A stretch of 32,893 nt of DNA from Flavobacteriales bacterium (lineage in GTDB: Bacteria; Bacteroidota; Bacteroidia; Flavobacteriales_F; PHOS-HE28): positions 1 to 32,893 of the forward strand of contig JANNYL010000451.1 in NCBI GenBank assembly GCA_031410075.1, written 5' to 3'. A program made the translations under genes and the position numbers. Position 1 is the first letter of the stretch. Each line of letters begins with the position of its first letter. The notes beneath the pieces were generated by a model. That model saw nothing but the letters and a program-made list of their open reading frames with translations, made no database searches and had not been told where the DNA came from. Of the stretch, positions 1 to 24,238 are shown one piece after another.

Positions 1-511
1 ATCGTGGTGGACCGGCGGGTGCGATAGAGACCCTGCCGGTACCCTCATCGTACACGCGCCACTTGCTCATGGGTTTCGCATACAGGTTCAACGTAACAGC
101 ACGCTCCGGCCCGCGGTTGGTGAAGCGGTGAATAGCGTTACCGTTCGTAAGCGAATCATCGGTACCCGGATGCAGATGGAGTTCACGAGAACGCTTGATG
201 CCCTCAGGGACTTTGGTGTACCGCTCCTCCACCACTTCGCCGATCACAGGATGGATCCACGCCGTTTGACTATCATAGTCATGAATACTTGTGCCCTGGC
301 CTGGTTCATAGCAGATCACCAGCAACTCGAACTCGTTGTTCCGATGGATGCATGTGCGCGTGTAGTGCCGACCGTTCCAGCGGAAGTAGGGTTCAAGGTC
401 CCGCGTTGGCACTGCATATCGCGCAAGGATGCCCGCAAAGCCAGCGGTATTCGGATGCCGGTGAAGTTCCTGCACCAGCTCGCGGATGGTATTGATGGGA
501 GCGGATAGCAT
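1..511 (-). CDS. Cysteine dioxygenase-like cupin protein (runs off the window edge; atypical ligands)
   Basis: Not in the ORF track because it has no stop inside the window. Manual translation from ATG 511 is open for 170 codons: MLSAPINTIRELVQEL...HYTRTCIHRNNEFELLVICYEPGQGTSIHDYDSQTAW...AIHRFTNRGPERAVTLNLYAKP... It follows the CDO pattern YTR / S-IHDH / (L)HR / SLHLY with substitutions. Confidence 0.8.
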   Translation of the reverse strand, partial: MLSAPINTIRELVQELHRHPNTAGFAGILARYAVPTRDLEPYFRWNGRHYTRTCIHRNNEFELLVICYEPGQGTSIHDYDSQTAWIHPVIGEVVEERYTKVPEGIKRSRELHLHPGTDDSLTNGNAIHRFTNRGPERAVTLNLYAKPMSKWRVYDEGTGRVSIAPAGPPR

Positions 512-539
512 AGTGGAAACACACACCGATCGTGCTTGG

Positions 540-635
540 CAAACGTATCGGGGTGATCAAGCTCTTTTCCTGACGTTCGTCAGTTCTGCGAAGGACATTG
601 ATCAGGGTTTTCGTTCACTAACCATAAGACCTTTG
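540..635. promoter_or_regulatory. Divergent promoter pair (CDO-like gene / HMA-usp) with two Crp/Fnr-like boxes
   Basis: Minus-strand -7 element TACGTTTG (540-547). Boxes TGAC-GTTC-GTCA (571-582) and GGAC-ATTG-ATCA (593-604). Plus-strand GACCTTTG (628-635). Each box is 23 bp from its -7 element. Confidence 0.7.
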
Positions 636-653
636 GGTCAAATCTGATACACC

Positions 654-929
654 ATGTCCGAGTTGATCTTCCATGTTGACAATTTGAAATGCGAAGGCTG
701 CGCAACCAGTATTCGTAACCGTTTGGCAGAGTTGCCCGGTGTGAGTGGTGTGTTCGTGGATCCGGAAGCCGGCACAGTGAACCTCTCCAATGATGGCGCT
801 TCGTCGCGTGTGGAGATCGCGAGCGCGTTGCTATCGTTGGGCTATCCGGAACATGGAACAGGCGGAATTATCGAGAAGGCGAAGTCGTACGTGAGTTGTG
901 CGGTTGGCCGGATACACGGGGAGGATTGA
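654..929 (+). CDS. Heavy-metal-associated (HMA, CopZ-like) domain protein
   Basis: NLKCEGCA (CxxC) metal loop in a ~70-aa ferredoxin-like fold, plus a C-terminal KAKSYVSCAVG tail. Confidence 0.9.
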   Translation: MSELIFHVDNLKCEGCATSIRNRLAELPGVSGVFVDPEAGTVNLSNDGASSRVEIASALLSLGYPEHGTGGIIEKAKSYVSCAVGRIHGED

Positions 930-1000
930 TCAACGGTTCAGAGGAGGTCACGAACGCAACAACAGATTCACCCACAGCTTAGCACAGTTCACTTGTTCCC

Positions 1001-1810
1001 ATGGCGAATATCCTTATCCCCACAGATTTCAGCGACAATTCGATGCACGCAGCGGAGTATGCTGTGAAGCTCTTCGGTGCGAAAGGCAACTCGTTCGTTC
1101 TCTTGCACACATACATCGATGTGAGTGTGGCAGACCCGGTAATGCCGAGCATGGCGCGCGAAATGATGGTGGTATCGGAAGAAGGTCTGCAGGATTTCAC
1201 AACGAGGCTGAACTCACGCACAGGCGTGGAAGGTGTGAAGCAAGAGGTCCGTTATGGATTTTTGGAATCCGTGGTGAACGAGATCGCCGCAAGTGCGGGA
1301 TGCCAACTTGTTGTGATGGGGAAGCGCGGTAAAGGCGGTTCAGCGTTCTTCGGAAGCAATACGACCAGGTTGATCAACCGCAGCCACGTTCCAGTACTGG
1401 CTGTTCCAGAAACGGCGGCATTGAAAAAGGTGGAACGGATCCTGTTGGCCGATGATCACGATGACATTCTGCCTTCCCAACTGACCATACTGAAACAGAT
1501 AGCACTAGCGAACAATGCAGAAATATTGGTGGCTCATGTAGAGATCGAGGTTGCTGCCACGGCTTCCCATTGGAGTGATGGGGTTTATAAGCTAGCGCTT
1601 GAAGGAACCAAGCACAGTTTTCAGAACGCGCATGGCGAAGATGTGATCAACGGACTGGACAGGATCGCTCGGCACCAGAAGGTGGACATGGTCGCTGTAC
1701 TGCACCGCCACATCGGGTTGATCGGTCGTTTGTTCCACCCGAGCACGGCGAAAGAACTCTCTCGCAGCATCGATCTTCCGTTGCTCGTGATGGAATACAC
1801 GGACAAGTAA
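1001..1810 (+). CDS. Universal stress protein (tandem Usp domains)
   Basis: ILIPTDFSDNS N-terminus, LVVMGKRG...FFGSNT...VPVLAVP, and a second degenerate Usp domain. Confidence 0.93.
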   Translation: MANILIPTDFSDNSMHAAEYAVKLFGAKGNSFVLLHTYIDVSVADPVMPSMAREMMVVSEEGLQDFTTRLNSRTGVEGVKQEVRYGFLESVVNEIAASAGCQLVVMGKRGKGGSAFFGSNTTRLINRSHVPVLAVPETAALKKVERILLADDHDDILPSQLTILKQIALANNAEILVAHVEIEVAATASHWSDGVYKLALEGTKHSFQNAHGEDVINGLDRIARHQKVDMVAVLHRHIGLIGRLFHPSTAKELSRSIDLPLLVMEYTDK

Positions 1811-1815
1811 AGTAC

Positions 1816-2199
1816 TCAGGCAATAGTTCCAGCTAGTGCGATGATGTGTCCGTCATCGTCGGCGTAGTAGGCCACCCGATGCCCCCAGTCCCGATCGGAT
1901 AGCGCGTTCACCAATTGCGCACCAGCACGAGTTGCACGCGCACAAGCAGCTGGCAGATCCTCCACAAGCAAATAGATCTCGCAACGCGGAACTCCGTTGG
2001 CTGCTGATGGATGTGGCATAGGCCCACAGATGATCCGCGCAATGCCAGCCTCAGGCATCAGTCCCAGTTTGCATCCGCCCGGCAAGGTGAATTCGGTCAT
2101 GCCGAGCACGTCCAATGACGGTACCTGGCCCAACAGCTCAGTATACAAACGCGCGCTCCGCGACTGGTCAGCGACGTACAGGATGAATTCGATCGACAT
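1816..2199 (-). CDS. VOC/glyoxalase family protein
   Basis: ILYVADQ..S..LY start and RDWGHRVAYYADDDGHII end are typical VOC motifs. Confidence 0.88.
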   Translation of the reverse strand: MSIEFILYVADQSRSARLYTELLGQVPSLDVLGMTEFTLPGGCKLGLMPEAGIARIICGPMPHPSAANGVPRCEIYLLVEDLPAACARATRAGAQLVNALSDRDWGHRVAYYADDDGHIIALAGTIA

Positions 2200-2237
2200 T
2201 CCGGAAAGGTATCCGACCCATCAACCACAATGCACGA

Positions 2238-2633
2238 TCACATCCGCTTGGTCAACCACTGCGTGAACTCGTGCTTGAGTTCGCGGTAGAGCTTTTCGAA
2301 CGTGGCCATCTCTTCCCGGTGTTCGGTGTGGTCAGCGAACAGGCGATGGTCCACGGCGATCGGGTGCTCGCGCACTTCCTTCTCCAATTGGTTCTCGTGC
2401 TGCTTCAACTCGTGCCGAAGTTCATCGATCACTTCGCGTTGCCGGATGTATTGGTTCTGGAAGTGCTCCAGTTCCGCCATCACATCGGTTCCGGTGTTCC
2501 GCTGTGCGATCTCTTCCATCCGATGTTCCAGGATGGTGATCTCTTCCTTGTAAAAGGACAACGAGTTCAACCACAGTTTGTGGTCGTTGTGCAGATCAGC
2601 GATGTGCACATGTTTTTGTGTTGCGGTGTTCAT
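2238..2633 (-). CDS. Hypothetical His/Glu-rich helical protein
   Basis: 131-aa ORF with coding-like codon usage, co-oriented after the cco operon; amphipathic helices. Confidence 0.8.
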   Translation of the reverse strand: MNTATQKHVHIADLHNDHKLWLNSLSFYKEEITILEHRMEEIAQRNTGTDVMAELEHFQNQYIRQREVIDELRHELKQHENQLEKEVREHPIAVDHRLFADHTEHREEMATFEKLYRELKHEFTQWLTKRM

Positions 2634-2669
2634 GGTTGGTCGGTTTCAGTTCGGTTCAGAAGTTGTTGT

Positions 2670-3374
2670 TCAAGGGCACACGGTGGCTTGTGCGGGTACC
2701 GTATCTGGTGGAGGGCTCACCATCGGGATCCCCAGTTCCAAGCCACGCAAGATCATCAATATTCCTAATGCCGATACCACCACTGGAGACATCCTGCGCA
2801 GCAAAGTACGACCGCCACCACCGATCAAGTGACCACTCATTCTGAGAGCGATCAAGGCTGGCCATGTACCGAGCCCGAACAGGGCCATGAACAAAGCACC
2901 TTGTGAAACAGCGCCCATCGCCGTGGCACCCACAGCGGCCGCATACACCATACCGCAAGGAAGCAGGCCGTTCAGAAGACCCGTTGCGAACAGCGCTTCC
3001 GGTTCGGTGCGTTTCAAGTTGCGACCCAACACGCCACGGAAACGAGCGATCATCAGTGATAGATGACCTGTCGGGCTCCAACGTTCCAATAGGCCCGGCA
3101 CCAACACAGAGAGAAGGATCAACGCACCGGCAAGGATCGAAACTGTTTGCTGGAGTCCGACGAGTTGCAAGCCTTTTCCGAACGCACCGAAGGCTGCACC
3201 CAAAAGCGTGTAGGTCGCCAGCCGGCCGCTGTTCAGGAGAAGCGTGCTGGTAAATCGGGATCGCCATCCCGTTCCAGGAGAAGGCACCGCCAATGCGATC
3301 GGCCCACACATCCCCAAGCAATGGCCGCTGCTAGCAAAACCAAGTACCAATGCCGCAGGGATCCACGCCGTCAT
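2670..3374 (-). CDS. Sulfite exporter TauE/SafE (DsbD_2) family membrane protein, cbb3 biogenesis-associated
   Basis: HCLGMCGP and NGLLPCGMVY motifs. Start moved to ATG 3374, which overlaps the fixH stop (ATGA). Confidence 0.9.
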   Translation of the reverse strand: MTAWIPAALVLGFASSGHCLGMCGPIALAVPSPGTGWRSRFTSTLLLNSGRLATYTLLGAAFGAFGKGLQLVGLQQTVSILAGALILLSVLVPGLLERWSPTGHLSLMIARFRGVLGRNLKRTEPEALFATGLLNGLLPCGMVYAAAVGATAMGAVSQGALFMALFGLGTWPALIALRMSGHLIGGGGRTLLRRMSPVVVSALGILMILRGLELGIPMVSPPPDTVPAQATVCP

Positions 3375-3814
3375 CGCACAAAGATCCGTTTTTCGGTCAG
3401 CCTTTCTTCGCCGTCCATCTTCCAATCCAGCCGCATGCGGTACACGCCTTTGATCAAGTCGTGTGTTGCCAAAGCGAACAGACCAGCGCTATCAGCAGAT
3501 ACATCTACAGTGAGATCACCGAGTTCCGTGGAAGGTCGCATCAAGTGCAGCGTACCGGTGATCGGTGCTCTGCTCTTCCTGGTAGGGAATTGGAGTGACA
3601 GGCTGCCGGCGCCTTCCGTAACGACCACCTCCTCCCCGGAGCGCAGCGCGTTGCTCAATTTGTCGATATCGGCCTGGTACGCCAGTTCCTCCTTGTAGTA
3701 GTCTTCCGCAACCAGTGGGGAAGGGTTGTTCAAGGCGCGCATGGCGAACCAGCCCATCATCACCACAAAGGCGATCAGCACAGCAGCGAGCCCGGTTCCC
3801 CAGTTCAGTTTCAT
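3371..3814 (-). CDS. fixH: FixH/CcoH cbb3 oxidase assembly protein
   Basis: MKLNWGTG N-terminal TM segment, LVAEDYYKEELAYQ motif, position directly after ccoG. Confidence 0.88.
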   Translation of the reverse strand: MKLNWGTGLAAVLIAFVVMMGWFAMRALNNPSPLVAEDYYKEELAYQADIDKLSNALRSGEEVVVTEGAGSLSLQFPTRKSRAPITGTLHLMRPSTELGDLTVDVSADSAGLFALATHDLIKGVYRMRLDWKMDGEERLTEKRIFVR

Positions 3815-5238
3815 GATGCCTTGGTAATGGGTCCTACGAACGAAGTACGCACTTGATCGATCAATTTATCCCCGCTGAAGATACCCACATTCAATTCGGT
3901 GGTATAGCCATGCACGTCGGCCTTGTCGAGGATGATGAAAAGCTCTCCTTCGATCAGCTCCGCTTTACCCAATTCGCGTGCAGCCCCTACCAAAGTCACC
4001 TCACCCTTGCTGCCGATCAATTCGAAACGGATCGGCATTTCGCGCGAGGTCTTGTTCACCACTTTGTACGCGTAAATGTTGCTGATGCGGCCATCATCCC
4101 GCCTTTGGAACAAGGTGCCAGGGGTGCGCAGCACGGTGGTTTCCACATCGCTACGCGTAAGGATCAAGAGCAACAGGATGCCCACCAAAGCAGTAAGTAC
4201 AACGCTGTAGCCTTTCATGCGCGGGGTGTATCTCCACGGTTTCTTGTCGGCGATCTCGCGCTCACTGGCGAAACGGATAAGTCCGGTGGGAAGGCCAACG
4301 CCGGTCATCATGTGGTCACAGGCGTCTATGCATGCGGTGCAGTTCACGCATTCCAGCTGGGTGCCGTTCCGGATGTCGATGCCCGTAGGGCACACATGCA
4401 CACAGGCCTTGCAGTCGATGCAGTCACCCTTGCCCACGGCAGCCCGATCCTCGTTCTTCTTGAACAGACCACGCGATTCGCCGCGCATGTGGTCGTACGC
4501 GATCACGGTGCTGTGCCGATCGAGCAGCACGCCTTGTAAGCGGCCATATGGGCAGATCGTGGTGCATACCTGTTCTCGCAAGAATGCGAACACCCCATAG
4601 AACACGCCACTGAAACCAAGGACCGCCACAAAGCCGCTCCAATGCGTATTGGGCGAAACGGTGATGATATCGATCAGCCGGTCCGTTCCGATCAAGTAGG
4701 CGAGGAAGGTATTTCCGATCACGAAGGCCACACCGAAGAAAAGGACGTGTTTCAACGTCTTCTTCCAGATCCGTTCACCGGACCAAGGTCCCTTGTTGAG
4801 CGCTTGTTGTTGCTTCCAGTCCCCTTCCACCCAGTACTCGATGCGACGGTACACCAGTTCCATAAAAATGGTTTGCGGGCAGGCCCAGCCGCAGAACAAT
4901 CGCCCAAAGGCCACAGTGAATAGCGCAACGAAAACAATGAACGTGATGAAGCCGATAACGAAGAGATGGATGTCCTGTGGCCAGAACGTACGACCCAGGA
5001 TAACGAACCGACGGTCGATCACATCCAACTGCAACAACGGCTCGCCTGCAATGCGGATCCAAGGACCCAGCATAAGCATGACTAAGAGCGTATATCCGAA
5101 CAGCTTGCGCCAGTTCCAGAATTTCCCTGAGACTTTCTTCGGATAGATCCAAACGCGCTTCCCATGCTTGTCCACCGTTGCGATGGAGTCACGGAATTGC
5201 TCGTCCCGCTTGGTGATCGCTGGTGGCTTGGGGATCAC
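3811..5238 (-). CDS. ccoG: Cytochrome c oxidase accessory protein CcoG (4Fe-4S membrane protein)
   Basis: GRLFCGWACPQT, CPYGRLQ, CIDCKACVHVCPTGIDIR..QLECVNCTACIDAC; GTG start overlaps the ccoP stop. Confidence 0.95.
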   Translation of the reverse strand: MIPKPPAITKRDEQFRDSIATVDKHGKRVWIYPKKVSGKFWNWRKLFGYTLLVMLMLGPWIRIAGEPLLQLDVIDRRFVILGRTFWPQDIHLFVIGFITFIVFVALFTVAFGRLFCGWACPQTIFMELVYRRIEYWVEGDWKQQQALNKGPWSGERIWKKTLKHVLFFGVAFVIGNTFLAYLIGTDRLIDIITVSPNTHWSGFVAVLGFSGVFYGVFAFLREQVCTTICPYGRLQGVLLDRHSTVIAYDHMRGESRGLFKKNEDRAAVGKGDCIDCKACVHVCPTGIDIRNGTQLECVNCTACIDACDHMMTGVGLPTGLIRFASEREIADKKPWRYTPRMKGYSVVLTALVGILLLLILTRSDVETTVLRTPGTLFQRRDDGRISNIYAYKVVNKTSREMPIRFELIGSKGEVTLVGAARELGKAELIEGELFIILDKADVHGYTTELNVGIFSGDKLIDQVRTSFVGPITKAS

Positions 5239-14229: not shown

Positions 14230-16227
14230 TTATGAACCTGCGTCGTAGGACTTGGTAATGCCCTTCAGTTCCACCTTGCTGTTCGCTGGTGACACACGGA
14301 TGTAGCCTTGCATTTCCTGGTGCAGCGCGCTGCAGAAGTCCGTGCAGTACATCGGTGTAACGCCCACTTGCTCAGGGACCCATTTCAGCGTTTGGGTTTC
14401 ACCAGGCATGATGAGCAACTCTGAGGTCGCAGCGCCTTTGATCGCGAAGCCGTGCGGCACATCCCAGTCCTGTTCCAGGTTCGTTACGTGGAAGTACACC
14501 TCATCCCCGATCTTGATGCCTTCGATATTGTCCGGTGTGAAGTGCGAACGGATGCAGGTCATGTACACATGCACTTTGTTGCCTTCGCGAACCACCTTGG
14601 ACTCCTTTTCACCCTTGGTGACATAAGGATGCTGGTTGTCTTCGATCTTGAAGAACTTTACTTCGCGCGGTCTCACCAGATCGGCTGGGATCGCTTGGGC
14701 GTAGTGCGGTTCGCCAATGGTGGGGAAGTCCAGCAGCAGTTCCATCTTCGGTCCATCGATGCTGAAGAGTTGTGCGCTCTGCGCCAATTCCGGGCCGGTA
14801 GGTAGATAGCGGTCCTTGGTGATCTTGTTGTAGGCGATCACGTATTTGCCCCAGGGTTTCTTGCTGTCACCGCCAGGCACGCACAGGTGGCCGATGGAGT
14901 AGTAGGTAGGCACGCGGTCCACAGGCTCCAATGTTTCCAACGACCATTTCACGATCTCGCTGCTCACGAAGAAACTCGTATAGGCGAAACCGTTCGCATC
15001 GAATTCCGTGTGCAAGGGTCCTAGACCGGGCTTCTTCACTTCGCCTTTGATCACGCTTGCATACTTCAATACAGGAATGCCCATAAAGTCACCTTCCACA
15101 TCGTTCTTGGCGATGGCCTCCTGGATCTTGCTGAACTGGAATACAGGGATCAACGCGGCGAGTTTGCCGCTGCCTACGATGTATTGTCCGGTGGGATCAA
15201 CATCGCAACCGTGCGGTGATTTCGGGCAAGGCATGAAGTAGATCAGGTCCTTCAGTTCGCGTGGGTCCAGTTGCAACACTTCGTTGCGCACTTCACTGAT
15301 GCCGGTATGCTTCGCATCGTCATACCAGTTCATGTAGTGTTTGCCAGGCACCATGCGGCCTTTGCCGGCTTTGGCATATTCCTCGGCCTTCTTCCAGTTC
15401 AAAGCCATCACGAAATCCTTGTCCTTCTGGCTCGCGTTCACTTCCAACAGACTGTACGCTTGCTCGCTGTTGTAGCAACTGAAGAAGAACCAACCTTCGC
15501 TGGGGCCTTTGCCCGCGTGCGACAAGTCGAAGTTCACGCCGGGTGTGATCACTTGGAAGGCGATGTCCAACTTCCCTGTTACAGGATCCGGATGGATGAA
15601 AGACACCGTGCCTTTGAAATTCTCGCGATAGCTGTCAATGGGAACGTCGCGTTGTTCGTCTGTTCCCATCGGTATGCTGAAACGTGTACCGGCCACCACA
15701 TATTCACTGTTACCGGTGGTGAACGGTGAACTGTGGTTACCCGCACTGTTCGGGATCTCGATGATGCTCTTCGTGCGGAACGTCCCAAGGTCGATCAAGG
15801 CGATGCGCGGTGTGTTGTTGCCGTTGATGAAGCACCATTTGCCATCGGGCACGCCATCCGTCTGGGAAAGTTCGGGATGGTGCGAATCGTCCCATGGGAT
15901 GAAGCCATGGGTGGTCATCAACATGGGCTTGGTCTCTTCGGAGAATCCCCAACCGCTCTCTGGGTTCACAGAGAACACGGGGATGTTGCGCAACATGCGA
16001 CCACTCGGAAGACCGTACACGGACAGTTGCCCGCTGAAGCCTCCGCTCAGGAAGTTGTAGAATTCGTCGTACGCGCCCGGTTTCACATAGGCCTTGTTCG
16101 CGGCATCGCCGGTAACGGCGCTTTGTACGTTGGTGCCGGGCCTGCAGCCGGGCAGGGTGTTCACCAGCATGAAGAGACCAGCTGCAGCCCCCAAGGTGCC
16201 GCCGGTTATGATGATCGATCGTTTCAT
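14230..16227 (-). CDS. nosZ: Clade II (Sec/lipoprotein-type) nitrous-oxide reductase
   Basis: SGGFSGQ start of the mature domain; CuZ histidines in DSHH, GNH, PHG, GPLH, EPH; CuA motif HGF...CTDFCSALHQEM. No twin-arginine motif; TLPGC lipobox-like signal; no fused C-terminal cytochrome. Confidence 0.97.
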   Translation of the reverse strand: MKRSIIITGGTLGAAAGLFMLVNTLPGCRPGTNVQSAVTGDAANKAYVKPGAYDEFYNFLSGGFSGQLSVYGLPSGRMLRNIPVFSVNPESGWGFSEETKPMLMTTHGFIPWDDSHHPELSQTDGVPDGKWCFINGNNTPRIALIDLGTFRTKSIIEIPNSAGNHSSPFTTGNSEYVVAGTRFSIPMGTDEQRDVPIDSYRENFKGTVSFIHPDPVTGKLDIAFQVITPGVNFDLSHAGKGPSEGWFFFSCYNSEQAYSLLEVNASQKDKDFVMALNWKKAEEYAKAGKGRMVPGKHYMNWYDDAKHTGISEVRNEVLQLDPRELKDLIYFMPCPKSPHGCDVDPTGQYIVGSGKLAALIPVFQFSKIQEAIAKNDVEGDFMGIPVLKYASVIKGEVKKPGLGPLHTEFDANGFAYTSFFVSSEIVKWSLETLEPVDRVPTYYSIGHLCVPGGDSKKPWGKYVIAYNKITKDRYLPTGPELAQSAQLFSIDGPKMELLLDFPTIGEPHYAQAIPADLVRPREVKFFKIEDNQHPYVTKGEKESKVVREGNKVHVYMTCIRSHFTPDNIEGIKIGDEVYFHVTNLEQDWDVPHGFAIKGAATSELLIMPGETQTLKWVPEQVGVTPMYCTDFCSALHQEMQGYIRVSPANSKVELKGITKSYDAGS

Positions 16228-16881: not shown

Positions 16882-18147
16882 ATGATATCCGAACACCCGG
16901 CGACCGACGGTACTGCACGAAATGGCCTTCGGCCTTGGTTCTTCGTCGCCTTGATGAACCTGTGCATCGCTGCTATCATAGGTTGCGTGCTTCGCAGCAT
17001 CTACATAGTCGAGATCCCACATGTCAACTTCAAGCCGCTGCTACACGCGCATTCGCACGTGGCCATGCTGGGGTGGATCTTCATGGCGCTCATGGTCTTC
17101 CTGCTGGAGGATGCCGATAGTGCGGACAAGCGCAAAGGCCACCGCTTACTGTTGTTGATCGTTCAGGTGGCGGTAGTTGGCATGTTGGTGAGTTTCCCAG
17201 TGCAGTCCTATGGTCCGGTGTCCATCGCCTTCACCACGTTACACATGCTGATCTCCTATGTGTTGGCGGTGTTCGCATGGAAGGGTACCCAGCATTGGGT
17301 GCCGAGTGGTAGTCGCCGGTTGGTGCGCATCGCGATCTGGATGATGGTGCTTTCCACCTTGGGTGTTTGGGCCATGGGCCCCTTGCTTGCGAGCGGACTC
17401 TTCGGCACCGAGTGGTATTACTGGAGCATCCAGTTCTTTCTGCACTTCCAGTTCAATGGCTGGTTCTGGTTCGCTGCCCTCGCGTTGTGGAGCCGTTGGG
17501 CCGAAACACATGGTGCGGATGAACCGCTGGATCCCTTCACCATCCGACTGTGGTTGGTTTCCGCGGTGCTCACGTTCGCGCTTGCCATTGCCTGGAGCGA
17601 ACGGCACTGGTACATCGTCGCCATTAACTCGATAGGCGTGTTGCTCCAACTATGGGCAGGTTGGCGCACTGCGAATTCCATTCGGCGTATGCAGGTGAAG
17701 TTGCACGACAAGGCCCCATTGTGGGCGTGGCGTTGCGTTACCTACGCGCTGATCGGCATGGGGCTGAAGGTACTGATGCAGGCCGCGGTATCCGTGCCGC
17801 AAATGGCGGACATGGCGCTCACCATCCGCAACTACGTGATCGGCTTCATCCATCTCAACATGCTTGGCGCCATCAGCATGATGCTATTCGCCATGGCCCT
17901 CGTGCGCGGCTGGTTCGTTTCCACCGACCGGCTCGTGCGCATCGGTTTGTCGCTCTTCACATCCGGCGTGTTGCTCAGCGAGGCCGCCCTCTTCTTGCAA
18001 GGCACGTTTTTCTGGATCGGTTGGGGCATGATCCCCGGTTACTACTGGATACAGTTCCTCACCTCGGTGCCGATACCCTTGGGGGTTATCGCGTTGCTGG
18101 TACACCTGGCAATAAAGCCCCCCGCAAGTGCTCGCGTAAGTGAATAG
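16882..18147 (+). CDS. Polytopic membrane protein, NnrS-like / heme-copper oxidase subunit I-like fold
   Basis: About 12 hydrophobic segments; His motifs HAHSHVAMLGW, LHFQFNGW and IHLNMLG. Family assignment is inferred. Confidence 0.65.
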   Translation: MISEHPATDGTARNGLRPWFFVALMNLCIAAIIGCVLRSIYIVEIPHVNFKPLLHAHSHVAMLGWIFMALMVFLLEDADSADKRKGHRLLLLIVQVAVVGMLVSFPVQSYGPVSIAFTTLHMLISYVLAVFAWKGTQHWVPSGSRRLVRIAIWMMVLSTLGVWAMGPLLASGLFGTEWYYWSIQFFLHFQFNGWFWFAALALWSRWAETHGADEPLDPFTIRLWLVSAVLTFALAIAWSERHWYIVAINSIGVLLQLWAGWRTANSIRRMQVKLHDKAPLWAWRCVTYALIGMGLKVLMQAAVSVPQMADMALTIRNYVIGFIHLNMLGAISMMLFAMALVRGWFVSTDRLVRIGLSLFTSGVLLSEAALFLQGTFFWIGWGMIPGYYWIQFLTSVPIPLGVIALLVHLAIKPPASARVSE

Positions 18148-18157
18148 GCCCGCGCTT

Positions 18158-18245
18158 GCGTGTCGCGAGTGCGCTCTTGCAACTCTGCCAATAAACTTTC
18201 ACACCGTGTTCGAGCGCAGGTTTGCGCACTCGCGACACGCGGGCG
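18158..18245. repeat. REP-like inverted repeat (17-bp perfect arms)
   Basis: GCGTGTCGCGAGTGCGC (18158-18174) is the exact reverse complement of GCGCACTCGCGACACGC (18224-18240). 18207-18245 recurs at 20617-20655. Confidence 0.8.
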
Positions 18246-18440
18246 ATCGCTGGGGATCTCTTGCACTGGAACGAAGTTGATCGGTGGAGAAGACGACGTC
18301 TTCAACAGCAGTTGTCGTGGATACCTTCGCACAACCTGTCCCGTTCGCGATTTGGCACAAGAGACCCCGCCCTGTTTGCCAGAGGTATTGGTTGGGCGGG
18401 AACTCTTGCGCCAGAGGGGGGCAAGCAAAATCATGTTGCA

Positions 18441-19370
18441 ATGAAAGCACAGAACAGATTTGGAGGTGTGGTGCTGCTATGCCTAACCGCAAATGCAAGT
18501 ATGGCCCAATGCTTTCCGGATTCTTCCGCCTCATGGTGTTTCCTCAGCGCGGCCAATTCTGAAGCTGTGCATACCCACATGGTTATGGGTCCGGAGCCGG
18601 ATACCGTCATCCTTGGTCAAACTTATCAGCGCATTGAAGAGTTCAACGATCACTTGGACTTTGATATATGGCAGTTCGTTAAGCGATATTACGTTCGGTC
18701 GGATACCACGGGAAAAGGCTATGTTATGCTACTTGACTCGATGCAGGAATACTTGGTGGCCGATGTGAGTGCCTTGACCGGTGATACGGTGCACGATGTC
18801 TTGACTGCTAATAGTTGGGGTTTCGATCAAACCTATTGGCTCAAGCCCGTAATCGTGGATTCGGTCGTTGTGTTCGAGAACAACGGAGTTTCTGTTACGC
18901 GTCAATTTGTTCATGCTATTCAATGGGAACCGAGCTACCCTACCAGTTATGAGATCTTTTGGCAGGCAGGCATGGGCAATAGCTATGGTCCGGTTCTGAT
19001 TCAGGCAGTAGTTGGTAGTTTCGAAGTGCTTCAGTGTTTGAGAGTGCAGGATACCTATGTCTACGCAGCACTATTTGGGTATCCCGGCCTGCCCGGTATC
19101 CCGTGCGATTGTCCTTTAGAAGGCCCTTTGGGTGTTGAAGAGCTGCATACTGCTGAGCGTGTTATGGCAAGCCCCAACCCCTCTGCCGGTGTTTTCAAAT
19201 TCACCGGCCCTACCCCCACGGCAATACACATCCTCGATACCCAAGGCCGCACACTTTTTACCACTACCAAAACCGAAGTTGATCTGAGCGCTTACCCGGT
19301 GGGGTGCTACCGTGCGGTGGTGGTTTCGGAGAGTGGTAGGAGTAGTTTGCCGCTGGTGGTTGTGCGGTAA
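18441..19370 (+). CDS. T9SS type A sorting domain-containing secreted protein (paralogue 1)
   Basis: Signal peptide ending SMA-Q from ATG 18441; DTVILG..Y and YYVRSD..GKGY core; CTD SPNPSAG..F...ILDTQGR..G.Y..VVVR. Confidence 0.88.
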   Translation: MKAQNRFGGVVLLCLTANASMAQCFPDSSASWCFLSAANSEAVHTHMVMGPEPDTVILGQTYQRIEEFNDHLDFDIWQFVKRYYVRSDTTGKGYVMLLDSMQEYLVADVSALTGDTVHDVLTANSWGFDQTYWLKPVIVDSVVVFENNGVSVTRQFVHAIQWEPSYPTSYEIFWQAGMGNSYGPVLIQAVVGSFEVLQCLRVQDTYVYAALFGYPGLPGIPCDCPLEGPLGVEELHTAERVMASPNPSAGVFKFTGPTPTAIHILDTQGRTLFTTTKTEVDLSAYPVGCYRAVVVSESGRSSLPLVVVR

Positions 19371-19398
19371 GGGTGTGCTAAAGCGGCAAGGTGTTTTC
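19173..19398 (+). repeat. Direct repeat copy 1 (T9SS CTD coding region plus ~28 nt past the stop)
   Basis: Matches 20387-20612. Hand alignment of 19221-19370 against 20435-20584 gives 16 mismatches in 150 nt. Confidence 0.9.
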
Positions 19399-19430
19399 CT
19401 TGGGGTTACTATCAGAAATGAAGAACGCAG

Positions 19431-19700
19431 TTGTATTCGAGAACAGCTTGCCCAGATACCTTCGTTCGTCTGCGAGTTTTTCCAAACCCCGCGAGCGGTT
19501 CGTTCAATGTACATGCGAATTTTCTTACGCAGCAAGGGTCAGCAACGATCCGGCTTTACGGTCCCACGGGCAATCTGGCAATGTCCACTTCAATGCAAGG
19601 ACAAGAGCAGCGCTTCGTCACAAACAATCTTCGCGGCCTGTACATGGTGGTGGTTGAAGGCAACGGTAAACAACTAACGCACAAACTTGTTTTGCAATGA
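19431..19700 (+). pseudogene. Orphan T9SS CTD fragment (3' stump of a larger secreted protein gene)
   Basis: LRVFPNPASGSF...IRLYGPTG...GLYMVVV...KLVLQ* is a complete CTD with no signal peptide or cargo. Its TGA overlaps the next ATG. Confidence 0.75.
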
Positions 19701-20584
19701 GACATGCAAAGACCATCGGATGTCTCGCAATGCTCCAGTGCTTACTTGCGGTACCAAGCATGGCGCAATTCTATCCCGAAGCCCAAGCTTGTTGGGATGG
19801 TGTAGATGATGATGGCGGTCCGCCGGATTATCAAGTCGGCTTCCGAATGGGGCTGACACCGGATACCCTCATCAATGGCACGGCGTACAAGAAGATCGAC
19901 GAATACCGGCACTCTGAGTTCACGAGGTCTTATTTCGTCCGCTCCGATCCAAGTGGCAAGGGTTACGCCTACTTGCCAGACTCTGCGGCTGAATTTCTGA
20001 CTGGCGATATAACGGCACAGGCAGGGGATACGGTGTATGACGTTTTGTGGAGCTTGACAAGTGCAAATGATATTTTCTATAGCCTACAGAATACCGTAGT
20101 TGATTCTGTTGTAGTGCTTACAAATGCGGGGGTAACCGTTACCCGGCACTACGTCAACAACAATGGTTCATTGGGCTTCTATCGTTTCTGGCAGGCTGGA
20201 ATGGGTGCCTCCTACGGTCCGATGCTTGAGGCAACTGGAAATGCATGGGGTTGCTCTGTCGGAGACACAGCGATGTTCGGTTGTTTAGCAGATGGCCTTC
20301 TTCCTGGTCCCATAGGCGAATGCACATGCTCAGTTCCAGGAAATGGGATCAATGACCACATTCGGCCACAAGAAATTCAGGTGCTTCCCAACCCCTCCAC
20401 CGGCCTCTTCCAATTCACCGGCATTTTCCCCACCGCAATACACATACTCGATACCCAAGGCCGCACACTTTTTACCACCAACAAACCAGAAGTAGACCTA
20501 AGCGCCTACCCAGTTGGGTGCTACCGGGCGGTGGTGGTTTCGGAGAGTGGTAAGAGCAGCTTGCCGCTTGTGGTTGTGCGGTAA
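19697..20584 (+). CDS. T9SS type A sorting domain-containing secreted protein (paralogue 2)
   Basis: Signal peptide ending SMA-Q; PDTLINGTAY, YFVRSDPSGKGY, FWQAGMG.SYGP shared with paralogue 1; CTD LPNPSTG. Confidence 0.88.
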   Translation: MRHAKTIGCLAMLQCLLAVPSMAQFYPEAQACWDGVDDDGGPPDYQVGFRMGLTPDTLINGTAYKKIDEYRHSEFTRSYFVRSDPSGKGYAYLPDSAAEFLTGDITAQAGDTVYDVLWSLTSANDIFYSLQNTVVDSVVVLTNAGVTVTRHYVNNNGSLGFYRFWQAGMGASYGPMLEATGNAWGCSVGDTAMFGCLADGLLPGPIGECTCSVPGNGINDHIRPQEIQVLPNPSTGLFQFTGIFPTAIHILDTQGRTLFTTNKPEVDLSAYPVGCYRAVVVSESGKSSLPLVVVR

Positions 20585-20612
20585 GGTGTGCTAAAGCGGC
20601 AATGTGTTTTCT
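20387..20612 (+). repeat. Direct repeat copy 2 (T9SS CTD coding region plus 3' tail)
   Basis: See 19173-19398; the last 51 aa are 48/51 identical. Confidence 0.9.
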
Positions 20613-20616
20613 TCCA

Positions 20617-20655
20617 TGTTCGAGCGCAGATTTGAGCACTCTCGACCCGCGAGCG
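20617..20655 (+). repeat. Second direct copy of the REP-like arm
   Basis: TGTTCGAGCGCAGATTTGAGCACTCTCGACCCGCGAGCG versus 18207-18245: 34/39 identical. Confidence 0.8.
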
Positions 20656-20729
20656 TGATCGCGGCAGCTCGTCTCTGGCGGGCTATTCTACCGCTTCATC
20701 CATCCCGTTGATCGTTTCAGAGTATCGGG

Positions 20730-20772
20730 TGACGAAGGTCACCAAAGAGGTGGCTCATATGCACCACCTTCG
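20730..20772 (+). promoter_or_regulatory. Crp/Fnr-like box and -7 element
   Basis: TGAC-GAAG-GTCA (20730-20741), 23-bp gap, CACCTTCG (20765-20772). Confidence 0.65.
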
Positions 20773-20777
20773 ACGGT

Positions 20778-21959
20778 GTGAAAGGTCGCGGTATCATTCT
20801 TCGTGTGCTGTTTTCGGCGGTCTCCGGTATGTTCTGCTTTGCGCTTGTGCTTGGTCAGAACTTGGTACCGAACGGAGGCTTCGAGACCTTCAGTTCATTG
20901 CCCACCGGTTATGCCCAATTGTGCAAGGCCACGGGCTGGACCTCTGCGAGCAATGCGTGTACGATCGCACCCGGTTGCGGGCATCCCGACTACATGCACA
21001 CAGCGGGTGGCGCAGGCGTGCAAGCACCGAACACCACCTTTGGCACCACTATGCCGCACATCGGTAATGCGCTGATCGGCTTCACTCCATGGTATTTGGT
21101 GGGAGTCACCAACTTCCGCGAGTACCCGCGCATTACGCTCTCGTCCCCCTTTGTGCCGGGCCAATCGTATACCGTCTCATTCTGGACCACGAACGGCACC
21201 AACCCCTATTCCGGCTGGGGCATCAATAACCTGGGCGTTGCCTTCACCATAGCACCACTGAGCCAAAGCTGCGGTGCTCCGCTCACCGGGGTGATCCCGC
21301 AGATCGAGATCACTACCGTTGTCTTCAGTTCCACCTGGCAGCTGCACTCGTTCACCTTCACGCCTACGCAGCCGTTCCAGTACATGACCATTGGCAACTT
21401 CCACAATGATGCCGGCACCACTGCCGCGCAGATGTCGCCTACCGGCGGAATGGGAGCGTACTATTTTTTGGATGATGTGTCCGTGTCGCTCACCGTTCCG
21501 TTGCCGATCGTGCTGCTCGCGTTCGATGCGGTATGTGATGGAAGTTCGGTACGCGTGCAATGGAGTACGGCCTCGGAATCGAACAACGCCTATTTCACAG
21601 TGGAACGAAGTGCTGATGCCGAGAATTGGTTGCCCATCGGCACAGTTTCCGGTGCAGGCAATTCGCAACAACCAATACAGTACGAGTTCCAGGATGCCGA
21701 AGCCCTGACCGGTCCCGGTTACTATCGATTGAAACAGACGGACTACGACGGTGCATACGACTATTCTCCGGTGGTGAGCGCGACCGCATGCCGCGACAAA
21801 GAGGTACTGCAACGATGGATGGTTGATGCCAGCGGACGGATCTGCAGCACGTGGCCCGTTGCGGCTGGATCGATGGGCACGGGCATCTATCTCGTTCGCA
21901 CGGAGTACACCGATGGCTCGGTAGCGACCGCCAAGGTTGCAGTGCTACAACCCTATTGA
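20778..21959 (+). CDS. Secreted Bacteroidota protein with a QNLVPNGGFE beta-sandwich domain, a PLPI-type Ig-like domain and a shortened T9SS CTD
   Basis: Signal peptide VLG-Q; PLPIVLLAFDA...WSTASESNN..F.VERS..YYRLKQTDYDG; GIYLV..K.AV tail; GTG start. Confidence 0.82.
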   Translation: MKGRGIILRVLFSAVSGMFCFALVLGQNLVPNGGFETFSSLPTGYAQLCKATGWTSASNACTIAPGCGHPDYMHTAGGAGVQAPNTTFGTTMPHIGNALIGFTPWYLVGVTNFREYPRITLSSPFVPGQSYTVSFWTTNGTNPYSGWGINNLGVAFTIAPLSQSCGAPLTGVIPQIEITTVVFSSTWQLHSFTFTPTQPFQYMTIGNFHNDAGTTAAQMSPTGGMGAYYFLDDVSVSLTVPLPIVLLAFDAVCDGSSVRVQWSTASESNNAYFTVERSADAENWLPIGTVSGAGNSQQPIQYEFQDAEALTGPGYYRLKQTDYDGAYDYSPVVSATACRDKEVLQRWMVDASGRICSTWPVAAGSMGTGIYLVRTEYTDGSVATAKVAVLQPY

Positions 21960-22095: not shown

Positions 22096-22416
22096 TCAGA
22101 CCACTGGTATTCGATAGCCGTTCAACTTCCGGTTCACGGCATTCCGCATGGCGCGGTTTCCACCATGCGCGTTAACCACATGCACACTGCCATTGAATTC
22201 GATGCGCACGTTCACGATCAGATCGCCATCCACCGGCATTTCTGTTCCCAATAACGGCTTCACGCATTGTTTGAGCTGGCGCCCAAGTCGTCGCTCGAGT
22301 GCTTGCGTGATCTCGGAGGATGAACTGTCCAATACGAGCGCTTCGGCTTCAGCATCTACACCGAAGGCCGAAATGGACGCAAAGACAAGAACAAGGCGGG
22401 CTAGCACGGTGCGCAT
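22096..22416 (-). CDS. Hypothetical exported protein (possibly TonB C-terminal-like)
   Basis: Signal peptide from ATG 22416; G.LIVNVRIEFNGSVHVV resembles TonB-CTD beta strands. Confidence 0.6.
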   Translation of the reverse strand: MRTVLARLVLVFASISAFGVDAEAEALVLDSSSSEITQALERRLGRQLKQCVKPLLGTEMPVDGDLIVNVRIEFNGSVHVVNAHGGNRAMRNAVNRKLNGYRIPVV

Positions 22417-22509
22417 GGCTCTATGGAATATGTTGGTCAAAGCTCTCCTCACAAAAGCTCGCGTCTACACTCTTGACAGCATTTATGAGCTTTTACCAAC
22501 CACAGGTTA

Positions 22510-22552
22510 TGATGACCGTCAGTCGACGATCCGGGATCCGTGGATAGTTTGC
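22510..22552 (+). promoter_or_regulatory. Crp/Fnr-like box and -7 element of the multicopper oxidase gene
   Basis: TGAT-GACC-GTCA (22510-22521), 23-bp gap, TAGTTTGC (22545-22552). Confidence 0.65.
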
Positions 22553-22573
22553 GGCCTCGCAGACCAAAAACCG

Positions 22574-24238
22574 ATGAAACTGACCTCCCTGTTCGTTGCT
22601 TCCTTGTGCTCACTTGCCGCAACAGCCCAGTTCAACAACCCGCTGGCCATACCACCTGCGCTGGACCAGGACACCTTCGATCTGGTGGTGGATGAACATG
22701 TGCACCAGTTCTATCCGGGGATCAACACGAACACGTTCGGCGCCAGCGCGGAGTATCTCGGCCCCACACTCATTTTCCACACGGGGGACAGTGCGCGCAT
22801 ACGCGTTCACAACGAGCTTGGAGAAATGACGAACATGCACTGGCACGGGCTGCATGTGCCCGCCGAATTCGATGGTGGCCCACCTCGCGAAGTGATGCCC
22901 GGCGAAACATGGGATGTGCATTACAAGGTGATGAATCCGGCCGGCACATACTGGTACCACCCGCATCCGCATGAAATGACCGCTGAGCAGGCCAACAAAG
23001 GAATTGCCGGTTTCATCATCGTACGCGATGCCGAAGAAGCGGCGCTCGAGTTGCCCCGCACTTACGGCGTGGATGATTTCCCGATCGTTGTCCAGGATCG
23101 CCGATTCTTGACCAACGGGAACTTCGCCTTCGCGCCGCTGGGCGATTCGATGTTGGTGAACGGAACGCCACGTCCTTACCTGCAATGCCCTGCACAAATT
23201 GTGCGACTGCGATTGCTGAACGGCTCGAACGCGCGGATCTATGAACTGGGCTTCGAGAACGATCAAGCATTCACCGTGATCGCCGGTGACGGCGGTTTGT
23301 TGAACGCGCCTGTTAGCCAGAACCGCATTCGGCTCAGCAACGGTGAACGTGATGAGATCCTCTTGGACCTCACCGGCATGGAAGGGGACAGCTTGATGCT
23401 GATGAGTTACGGTTCCGAATTGCCGACCACCGTTCCGGGTGGCTTGAATATCCTGTGGGAAGGCAGTGCACTGAACGCCATTGACTTCCCGGTGTTGCGT
23501 ATCCGGATCGGCGCACCCACGGCAGGTGCGATCACCAGTATTCCGGCAACCCTCGGTACCGCGACACCCTATGATGAAGCTTTGGCGACCAACACACGCA
23601 CCAAGGTTCTATCGGGAACCGGAATGATCGGCTTTGCGTCGTTCTACATCAACGGGCACAGTTTCGAAATGAACGTGATCAACGATACCATTCAGTTGGG
23701 CGCGATGGAAGTGTGGACCATCGTGAACAGTTCGAACATGGCCCATCCGTTCCATATACACGGTGGATCGTTCTATGTCTTGGATCGGGATGGTACAGCG
23801 CCTCCACTTTGGGAGCAAGGCGCCAAGGATGTTGTACTGATGGACGTTGGGGATACCGTGCGTGTGATCATGCGCTTCGATGATTACACCACGGATGGAT
23901 GGCCGTTCATGTACCACTGCCACAACCTGTTCCATGAGGACAATATGATGATGGCGCAATACATCATTGTGGATCCCAACGTGGCGGTGTCCGCTACGAA
24001 GCCGCTGTCGGAGCTGCGGGTGTTCCCTTCCCCAACCCGTTCAACCATTACCTATACAGCACCCTTTGTTGCAACCGAATTGCTGCTGATGGACCGCTTG
24101 GGTCGCATCGTACTTCGCCAAGCAGGTCTTGGAAGCAACACAGGACTCGTCGATATGACTTCGTTGACTTCCGGCGCCTACCTGTTGGTCGTTCGCTCGG
24201 ATGAACATGAAGTGAGAACGGCTGTCGTTCGCGAATAA
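22574..24238 (+). CDS. Three-domain multicopper oxidase (CueO/laccase-like) with a T9SS CTD
   Basis: Start ATG 22574 with signal peptide ATA-Q. Cu motifs HWHG, WYHPH, HPFHIHG, HCHNLFHEDNMMM. CTD VFPSPT...DRLGR...SGAYLL. Confidence 0.93.
   Translation: MKLTSLFVASLCSLAATAQFNNPLAIPPALDQDTFDLVVDEHVHQFYPGINTNTFGASAEYLGPTLIFHTGDSARIRVHNELGEMTNMHWHGLHVPAEFDGGPPREVMPGETWDVHYKVMNPAGTYWYHPHPHEMTAEQANKGIAGFIIVRDAEEAALELPRTYGVDDFPIVVQDRRFLTNGNFAFAPLGDSMLVNGTPRPYLQCPAQIVRLRLLNGSNARIYELGFENDQAFTVIAGDGGLLNAPVSQNRIRLSNGERDEILLDLTGMEGDSLMLMSYGSELPTTVPGGLNILWEGSALNAIDFPVLRIRIGAPTAGAITSIPATLGTATPYDEALATNTRTKVLSGTGMIGFASFYINGHSFEMNVINDTIQLGAMEVWTIVNSSNMAHPFHIHGGSFYVLDRDGTAPPLWEQGAKDVVLMDVGDTVRVIMRFDDYTTDGWPFMYHCHNLFHEDNMMMAQYIIVDPNVAVSATKPLSELRVFPSPTRSTITYTAPFVATELLLMDRLGRIVLRQAGLGSNTGLVDMTSLTSGAYLLVVRSDEHEVRTAVVRE

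Follow-up and report, generated by a model that had tools for sequence, protein, structure and literature searches.

Two small type IX secretion cargo genes in an uncultured Flavobacteriales genome and the probable decay of the three-gene operon behind them

The window analysed here comprises positions 1 to 32,893 of contig JANNYL010000451.1 (32,893 nt, forward strand) in the Flavobacteriales bacterium assembly GCA_031410075.1, and the subject of this report is a tandem pair of small genes on its forward strand, paralogues 1 and 2. Their products belong to a family, referred to below as Z, that carries type IX secretion system (T9SS) sorting domains. In relatives, Z is the last gene of an operon, X-Y-Z, in which Y encodes a much larger T9SS protein. 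Both window genes begin in the same context, TTGCAATGA, found at 18436-18444 and again at 19692-19700, as the first-pass annotation of this DNA had pointed out, and their ATGs (18441 and 19697) each overlap the TGA (18442-18444 and 19698-19700) of an upstream frame on the plus strand. The features of the locus are as follows.

18150-18253 (+): module A, a dispersed repeat with a hairpin (inverted-repeat arms 18153-18174 and 18224-18245)
18289-18423 (+): module B, a dispersed repeat of ~135 nt that ends exactly at the start of the Y relic
18424-18444 (+): relic of a Y 3′ end, ~7 codons (SKIMLQ) and a stop that overlaps the ATG of paralogue 1
18441-19370 (+): paralogue 1, Z family, 309 aa, with putative signal peptide, N-terminal Gln, all-beta N-domain of ~215 aa and type A sorting domain from ~19173
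19173-19398 (+): conversion tract, comprising the paralogue 1 sorting domain, its stop and 27 nt, homogenised with 20387-20611
19422-19700 (+): stump, a 92-codon open frame with a whole Y-type sorting domain (homology 19467-19697), its stop overlapping the ATG of paralogue 2
19697-20584 (+): paralogue 2, Z family, 295 aa, with the architecture of paralogue 1
20585-20611 (+): second copy of the 27-nt post-stop repeat (direct repeat, 96% over 27 nt)
20614-20662 (+): partial module A, right half (86% over 42 nt; 84% over 49 nt)

Overall protein identity between the two paralogues is 51%, and it is unevenly distributed, with N-domains 39% and sorting domains 86% identical. In the DNA, identity amounts to 87% over the final 200 nt and to 96% over the 27-nt stretch after the stop. 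Because the sorting domains and post-stop stretches are far more alike than the N-domains, 19173-19398 and 20387-20611 are read as a gene-conversion tract between the paralogues. Two metagenome proteins (P0022 and P0028) combine sorting domains almost identical to those of the window paralogues with N-domains 46-47% identical to paralogue 1, which suggests that the paralogue-type sorting domain may spread among paralogues by conversion. A 92%-identical protein (P0001) was also found, and a metagenome scan with paralogue 2 as the query returned one locus. Public relatives of Z come from Flavobacteriales metagenome genomes and bear only the names “hypothetical protein” or “T9SS type A sorting domain-containing protein”.

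The sorting domains of the two paralogues score below the thresholds of the family profiles, at 16.8 bits each against TIGR04183 (cut-off 23) and at 18.5 and 17.3 bits against the Pfam sorting-domain family (cut-off 27). The model of paralogue 1 has a mean predicted local distance difference test (pLDDT) value of 86.8 for the whole protein, and that of the Z N-domain alone a pLDDT of 85.4 and a predicted template modelling score of 0.84. The sorting domain (model residues 240-308) superimposes on 8glk_D with a Z-score of 10.2 and a root-mean-square deviation (rmsd) of 1.7 over 69 aligned residues, on 8glj_D with a Z-score of 9.8 and on the mirolase sorting domain with a Z-score of 9.6; in the model, the C-terminus of Z is a 7-stranded Ig-like sandwich like the solved sorting domains of cargo proteins. 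At the other end, the N-terminus of Z is hydrophobic, and all 46 of the 46 sequences aligned have Gln23. Secreted proteins of Bacteroidetes are described, in the available part of the source, as following a Q-rule in which Gln stands at the mature end after the signal peptide (PMC5837995), and the invariant Gln behind the hydrophobic leader of Z fits this rule. Because of this leader with its invariant Gln and the sorting-domain fold, Z is predicted to be itself exported T9SS cargo.

The N-domain is modelled as an antiparallel sheet wrapped into an open barrel. Its best structural matches, among LolA/LolB/LppX-like open-barrel proteins, are weak (4fvs_A, Z-score 7.0, rmsd 4.6 over 151 aligned residues; LmcA, 7n3v, Z-score 6.5), and these scores lie within the range of a common arrangement, from which no ligand or function can be inferred. 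The top Foldseek rows, LolB, LolA-like and ependymin-related proteins, are weak as well, none reaching E 0.001. Z has no sequence relative among solved structures, its N-domain belongs to no Pfam or NCBIfam family, and in the ESM Atlas it falls only into unnamed Bacteroidota clusters (best 0.93).

The first-pass annotation had described the frame in front of paralogue 2 as a whole orphan sorting domain, and the profiles agree. The frame, which has a TTG at 19431, matches TIGR04183 at 38.5 bits (cut-off 23) over profile positions 1-72 of 72 and Pfam Por_Secre_tail (PF18962) at 35.4 bits (cut-off 27), and in front of its sorting domain there is neither a signal peptide nor a body. Its fit to the Y-type sorting-domain profile (E 2e-23) is far better than to the Z-type (E 3e-4). 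Its identity to seven Y-type sorting domains ranges from 45 to 61%, with the highest value for that of Y in genome G079. Because of this difference in fit, the parent of the stump would be either a Y gene or a Z gene with an acquired Y-type domain, as found in genomes G004 and G071. Comparison with the 7 Y-type sorting domains gave synonymous distances (dS) of at least 1 or not computable and ratios of nonsynonymous to synonymous change of 0.1-0.3 for all kinds of pair; with dS saturated, these values are compatible with recent loss of the stump's parent and with continued constraint alike. Two loci that are 99.5% identical to each other (L084 and L067) have zero differences in the stump or the second Z gene.

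The annotation had also seen, more tentatively, a few residues like a sorting-domain terminus before paralogue 1. The frame there (18160-18444) has no Pfam or NCBIfam match. The DNA at 18150-18423 is composed of the two dispersed repeats, modules A and B, and the only unique part of the upstream stretch is 18424-18444, which has 14 of 21 bases in common with 19680-19700. Genome G107 holds the closest relative of paralogue 1 (68% identity over the N-domain), and the 1,092-aa gene in front of this sister gene ends in NKIMIQ and a stop within an ATGA overlap, compared with SKIMLQ and a stop here. Because 14 of the 21 bases match the end of the stump and the Y of G107 ends in the same manner, the 21-nt piece is a real relic and not a chance resemblance.

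What the two Z genes have lost becomes apparent in relatives. The family-level group of the window genome was searched through 132 genomes; with paralogue 1 as the query, 53 of them yielded Z at E 1e-5 or better, nearly all in one genus; a Z N-domain profile found it in 85 of the 132, and in a sample of the phylum it occurs in 9 of 400 other genomes. Around the best matches 42 loci were fetched and mapped with custom profiles made from the fetched proteins, and these maps place the genes in the order X-Y-Z (loci L042-L049, L051, L068, L079 and others). The operon thus includes a third conserved gene, X, which was invisible to a reader of the window sequence alone. X proteins are 450-545 aa long, with two SprB repeats and a coiled-coil C-terminal end; all five tested match Pfam SprB at 59-71 bits (cut-off 28), the three tested against NCBIfam have no match, and the ESM Atlas leads from X to SprB clusters. 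Z, of ~300 aa, comes last, and its ATG usually overlaps the stop of Y in an ATGA.

Y proteins, roughly 1,080 aa long and ranging over 1,025-1,130 aa, are made up of a predicted beta-propeller of BNR/sortilin-like type, a 3-coathanger stack and, at the end, a type A sorting domain. The stack scores 45-59 bits against GCX_COOH (cut-off 26) in five of five Y proteins tested, and the propeller signals, BNR glycosylhydrolase-like and sortilin, are weak; the sorting domain matches the type A profile only. The first-pass annotation had proposed a protease, lipase or other hydrolase in this position. Y is not recognisable as a protease, lipase or toxin, and no toxin family was found in it in Pfam or NCBIfam. 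Among nine Y proteins mean identity is 41% over positions 1-730, 50% over 731-1005 and 28% in the sorting domain, compared with 33% for the Z N-domain. Many polar residues of Y are invariant, for example H465, D467, E469, D470, H486 and H530 in the numbering of the G107 protein, and may mark a metal or active site. A second family of ~1,030-1,055 aa, present in G004, G008, G045, G052, G065 and G116, has only the tail in common with Y (profile positions ~805-1067) and differs in its N-terminal part; in G008 (L070) such a protein is flanked by Z-like genes.

The upstream context was tallied for 45 Z genes with an intact N-terminal match, the classes being corrected by eye.

Full Y directly upstream: 14/45 (11 complete, 1 with a frameshift, 2 cut off by the contig edge)
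Y-type sorting domain at a contig end: 3/45 (not further classifiable)
Bounded 3′ Y stump: 9/45 (L020, L054, L056 twice, L057, L066, L067, L075, which is fused, and paralogue 2 of the window)
Upstream Z itself ending in a Y-type sorting domain: 3/45 (L052, L079 twice)
Few-codon relic with the ATGA kept: 4/45 (L053, L067, L073 and paralogue 1 of the window)
Another Z with its own sorting domain upstream: 2/45
Nothing related upstream: 6/45
A different T9SS protein 101 nt upstream: 1/45
X directly upstream: 1/45
Locus or contig edge: 2/45

Y-derived coding sequence thus stands immediately upstream of 29 of the 45 genes (14 + 9 + 3 + 3). The 4-nt ATGA overlap is found at 22, and 2 more have a 1-nt overlap. 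According to the annotation, a gene for a large T9SS protein should stand before homologues and overlap them by ATGA, and the 14 full Y genes of ~1,025-1,130 aa, together with the 22 overlaps, bear this out; the 9 bounded stumps, in other genomes and in the window, likewise confirm that modules of a stump and a partner exist beyond this locus. The 5′ breakpoints of the stumps fall at Y positions 729, 739, 788, 880, 894, 898, 904 and 942 or inside the sorting domain, and supported branches of the Z tree force at least 6 changes of the stump label, so that stump-plus-Z modules arose repeatedly, at least 6 times. In G017, G027, G094, G077 and G125, among others, Z is accompanied by no more of Y than 3′ pieces.

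Two loci show more complicated decay. L056 (G016:C8:345500-362000) is a large decayed array in which X and Y are broken into many frames and at least 4 Y-type sorting-domain stumps are interleaved with whole, fused and broken Z genes. At L057 (G081:C42), the Plug domain of a TonB-dependent receptor (Pfam, 39 bits) is fused, in a 222-aa frame (2056-2721), to the final 29 residues of a Y-type sorting domain. This frame ends in an ATGA overlap with a Z gene and is the scar of a recombination event involving an unrelated gene.

The N-domains of 43 Z proteins were used for an IQ-TREE phylogeny, which omits L071 and L075 as truncated or fused. In this tree the Z genes of G107 and G079 form the sister group of paralogue 1 (support 100/99), and each of them starts in an ATGA with a full or contig-cut Y. 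Paralogue 2 belongs to a clade of 7 genes (support 100/99), of which 3 directly follow a full Y. Because the tree places both among Y-coupled Z genes, the window paralogues descend from Y-coupled ancestors. The genome of the window, an assembly of 747 contigs with a marker completeness given as 100%, contains no Y. The Y of G107 found in it only the stump (E 5e-18) and weak unrelated matches, a Y body profile run against its six-frame open reading frames (ORFs) of at least 50 aa found only a distant paralogue on contig C514, and with an alignment of Y no match attained E 1e-30. Of the Y-type sorting domains in the genome, the stump itself scores best. Since the assembly is without Y, only the partners remain here, as the first-pass annotation had proposed. 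Another contig of the genome, C384, carries at 175-5114 an X-like gene (623 aa, E 1e-114 to the X profile), behind it a gene for an unrelated protein of 872 aa whose end is sorting-domain-like, and a third overlapping ORF; these genes may constitute a variant operon.

Taken together, these observations favour, with a probability of about 0.72, the reading that Z is a family of ~300-aa T9SS cargo, expanded in one genus of uncultured Flavobacteriales, that normally closes an X-Y-Z operon, and that this operon has decayed in the window. In the normal state, X is followed by Y and Y by Z, with the Z ATG usually overlapping the Y stop. The 4-nt overlap would couple translation of Z to that of Y by termination-reinitiation; because of this presumed coupling, Y and Z would be made together, and both would be exported via the T9SS, most likely to act together on the cell surface. 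Z is accordingly most likely a co-produced surface partner of Y. In the genome of the window, X and Y have been lost. At paralogue 1, ~7 Y codons survive, butted against two dispersed repeats that now occupy the site, and at paralogue 2 a whole Y-type sorting domain survives as an open frame of 92 codons; later, gene conversion homogenised the sorting domains and the 27 nt after the stop of both paralogues. The data show the operon and its overlaps, the loss of Y, the relics, the conversion tract and the repeated origin of stumps; translational coupling, the partnership of Y and Z, their surface location and any function are inferred, the coupling and joint action from the overlap and from general findings on overlapping pairs (PMC6728339, PMC10666635). 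The simplest cause of the recurrence of stumps is the overlap itself, because the end of Y is necessarily retained by a deletion or duplication that leaves the Z start functional. A further possible cause is that an upstream frame ending in ATGA may still help ribosomes to start on Z.

Several observations weigh against this reading. The loci are the best matches to the paralogues, and the tally therefore describes the near family and not a random sample. A Y-type sorting domain is undetectable upstream of 14 of the 45 (4 relics, 2 with another Z and 8 without Y-derived sequence), and 2 further genes lie at locus edges. Z persists without a full Y in the good genomes G000, G017, G027 and G094, and the closed genome G004 has only the Y paralogue with the common tail; with Z persisting without full Y in several genomes, Z cannot depend strictly on Y. 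The absence of Y from the window genome is an absence from a 747-contig assembly. The stump is preserved as well as working Y sorting domains, which fits recent loss or continued constraint, and its origin as the end of a Y or as the former Y-type sorting domain of paralogue 1 fits the data either way. Distances between Y proteins correlate with those between Z proteins (r 0.73-0.77), a statistic that ignores kinship and to which shared ancestry may contribute. No evidence of contact between Y and Z was obtained. A complex prediction that combined residues 125-925 of the G107 Y (excluding its first 124 and last ~170 residues) with residues 24-215 of the Z N-domain counts neither for nor against binding.

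Four other explanations were weighed against decay of an X-Y-Z operon. That the order Z1-stump-Z2 was made by a chimeric join in a fragmented metagenome assembly might be suspected from the 747 contigs of the genome and from the repeats that flank the array, and it is very improbable. A 1,244-nt contig from another sample covers 19233-20476 with no difference, an other-sample contig of one study bridges 18169-18513, again with no difference, and a run from another study contains a 408-nt piece across 19210-19617 with 28 differences. The order relic, Z, stump, Z recurs in G027, and likewise in a metagenome contig that was obtained independently and is 99.5% identical to that of G027. Because contigs from other samples and from another study span the junctions, the arrangement is not an assembly artefact. 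A rather doubtful proposal concerns the stump alone: it may be a Y-type sorting domain that once belonged to paralogue 1, comparable to those that Z N-domains carry in G004 and G071, where they overlap the next Z by ATGA. A conversion tract from paralogue 2 (sorting domain, stop and ~30 nt), inserted between the N-domain and this older sorting domain, would have cut it off. Z genes with a Y-type sorting domain and an ATGA to the next Z do exist (3/45; L052, L079 twice), only 24 nt separate the end of the conversion tract at 19398 from the opening of the stump frame, and the sorting domain of the stump groups with those before paralogue-1-like genes. However, the 17 codons before that sorting domain have no detectable homology to a linker of either kind, replacement and not insertion would be expected of homologous conversion, and the stump between two Z genes in G027 carries Y body positions 942-973 and can only derive from Y.

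The remaining two explanations concern what the modules are for, and both appear unlikely. Stump-plus-Z units may be silent or semi-silent cassettes whose conserved ends, the Y end upstream and the Z sorting domain with its post-stop repeat downstream, act as homology arms for swapping the variable Z N-domain at an expressed X-Y-Z locus. The variable core between conserved ends is consistent with this (N-domains 39% compared with 86% for sorting domains and 96% for the 27 nt post-stop), as are the lack of correlation between Z sorting-domain distances and the distances of their own N-domains (r 0.05), the divergent N-domains that P0022 and P0028 join to nearly the same sorting domain, and the arrays that adjoin the Y locus in G016:C8. 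Yet the window genome is without an expressed Y locus to act as recipient, both paralogues are intact with their own start and putative signal peptide, the breakpoints of the stumps are irregular, and conversion between tandem paralogues explains the mosaic without selected switching. The other possibility, toward which the first-pass annotation had leaned, is that Y is a secreted harmful enzyme and Z its specific, surface-displayed blocker, orphan Z genes being kept against the Y of neighbours. The layout, a 3′ fragment with an intact small partner, in arrays, is like that of the orphan modules of contact-dependent inhibition (CDI) and Rhs systems as presented in the available part of one source (PMC3150448); this trait is seen here in 9 stumps and 4 relics among the 45 genes. 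Z is kept where Y is lost, the Z N-domain diverges faster than Y (33% compared with 41-50% mean identity), and the many invariant His, Asp and Glu residues of Y, with its weak likeness to BNR glycosylhydrolases, would allow an enzyme. Other traits of such systems are reversed. CDI/Rhs-type proteins carry a variable toxin tip behind a conserved body, whereas the C-terminal body of Y (731-1005) is its most conserved part, at 50%, and the databases named above hold no toxin domain for it; their immunity proteins are not secreted, whereas Z has a hydrophobic leader, a putative signal peptide, and a T9SS sorting-domain fold. X has no role in the effector model, and evidence of interaction was not obtained. 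The correlated distances of Y and Z, with the ancestry caveat given above, and the survival of Z after Y in several genomes favour a specific relation of some sort. A toxin/immunity or effector/inhibitor relationship is not supported, and the annotation's alternative of paired surface proteins appears to be the better reading.

Orphan cdiA-CT/cdiI and rhs-CT/rhsI modules were reportedly described by Poole et al. in 2011. What the Z loci have in common with them, as far as the available portion of the source goes, is an array of partner genes behind the 3′ fragment of a gene for a large secreted protein, independent recurrence in related genomes, and the keeping of partners where the large gene is gone (PMC3150448). 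They differ in that the fragment retained here is the conserved export signal and tail of Y and not a polymorphic toxin tip, in that no toxin domain was found and the partner is itself predicted to be secreted T9SS cargo, and in that the secretion system is the T9SS and not the type V or type VI system. A rather remote conjecture is that Y may be a T9SS propeller enzyme directed against neighbours or surface polymers, that Z proteins may be its specific blockers on display at the surface, that arrays of stumps and Z genes may be the T9SS counterpart of orphan immunity islands, and that cassettes with conserved homology arms might let lineages collect and exchange partners after the loss of the weapon.

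Other known arrangements resemble the X-Y-Z operon in part. Genes for T9SS type B cargo are described, in the accessible text of one source, as having a downstream cognate gene for a PorP/SprF-like shuttle, with “orphan” denoting unlinked genes (PMC12618676); the likeness lies in a T9SS cargo gene followed by a smaller cognate gene for ~300 aa and in the existence of orphans. The differences are that Y and Z both carry type A domains, that Z has no match to PorP/SprF (E up to 0.1, Pfam or NCBIfam), and that Z is modelled as a soluble open beta-sheet domain with a sorting domain. For overlapping unidirectional gene pairs, the available parts of two studies report translational coupling and state that the products are often subunits of one heteromeric complex (PMC6728339, PMC10666635). 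Y and Z have in common with them the ATGA stop/start overlap between co-directed genes, and differ in that the overlap persists although the gene before it has shrunk to a stump time and again. Surface proteins of Porphyromonas gingivalis are reported to undergo domain rearrangement and allelic exchange in the available portion of a further source (PMC5266723), a likeness in the recombination among T9SS surface-protein genes with conserved C-terminal parts, with different proteins in a different organism and, in that portion, no account of stump-plus-partner modules. A limited, keyword-based literature search found no description of stump-plus-partner modules.

T9SS cargo genes are usually treated singly, and the conserved three-gene cargo operon described here, with an SprB-repeat protein, a large protein with a predicted propeller and a small partner, is uncharacterised and repeatedly decays into partner-only copies. 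For two of its three products, the sorting domain is the only part that falls into a named family. Because the 4-nt overlap leaves behind a scar that can be read, gene loss can be traced across the genus. The resulting natural series of Y-plus-Z, stump-plus-Z and Z-only loci lends itself to asking whether the small partner works alone. Bacteroidota largely do without Shine-Dalgarno-led initiation, and the same series is a natural test of the need for an upstream frame in starting translation in this phylum. Should the effector and blocker relationship nevertheless be true, this would be the first orphan-immunity-like system tied to the T9SS.

Modules A and B, dispersed non-coding repeats of ~100 nt (A) and ~135 nt (B) that are found together or apart on at least 7 contigs of the genome, at least 6 of them besides that of the window, could be a miniature inverted-repeat transposable element-like element or a leader. 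Module A sits where relatives have the upstream operon genes, and its copies at 18150-18253 and 20614-20662 bracket the two-gene array; further copies lie on C691, C362 (two), C438 and C432 at 88-92% identity. Module B recurs on C691 (89%), C598 (85%) and C634 (three copies, 71-82%, spaced ~800 nt apart). The junction of post-stop repeat, TT and module A recurs in a sequencing run of a different study. That module B might be a structured RNA was rejected, 0 of 40 predicted pairs being compensatory among 4 copies, and so was module B as coding sequence, the copies differing by indels of ~16-23 nt. An Rfam scan of 17900-20900 with E up to 1 found no family. Scans for promoters (3 found, 2.3 expected) and terminators (3 found, 3.2 expected) performed at chance, and TAnnTTTG, the −7 motif of Bacteroidetes, has 0 occurrences across the whole window.

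Directly after the array, a 393-aa ORF (20778-21959, +) has no Pfam family and a weak choice-of-anchor C match, and its C-terminal 100 aa look sorting-domain-like by eye. It is followed at 22148-24238 (+) by a gene for a CueO-like multicopper oxidase with three Pfam Cu-oxidase domains (NF008205, 354 bits, below the cut-off); with its weak C-terminal T9SS sorting domain, the product would be an exported laccase-like enzyme. The oxidase gene adjoins a nitrous-oxide-reductase-like gene cluster, identified by eye only from the ORF at 14230-16227.

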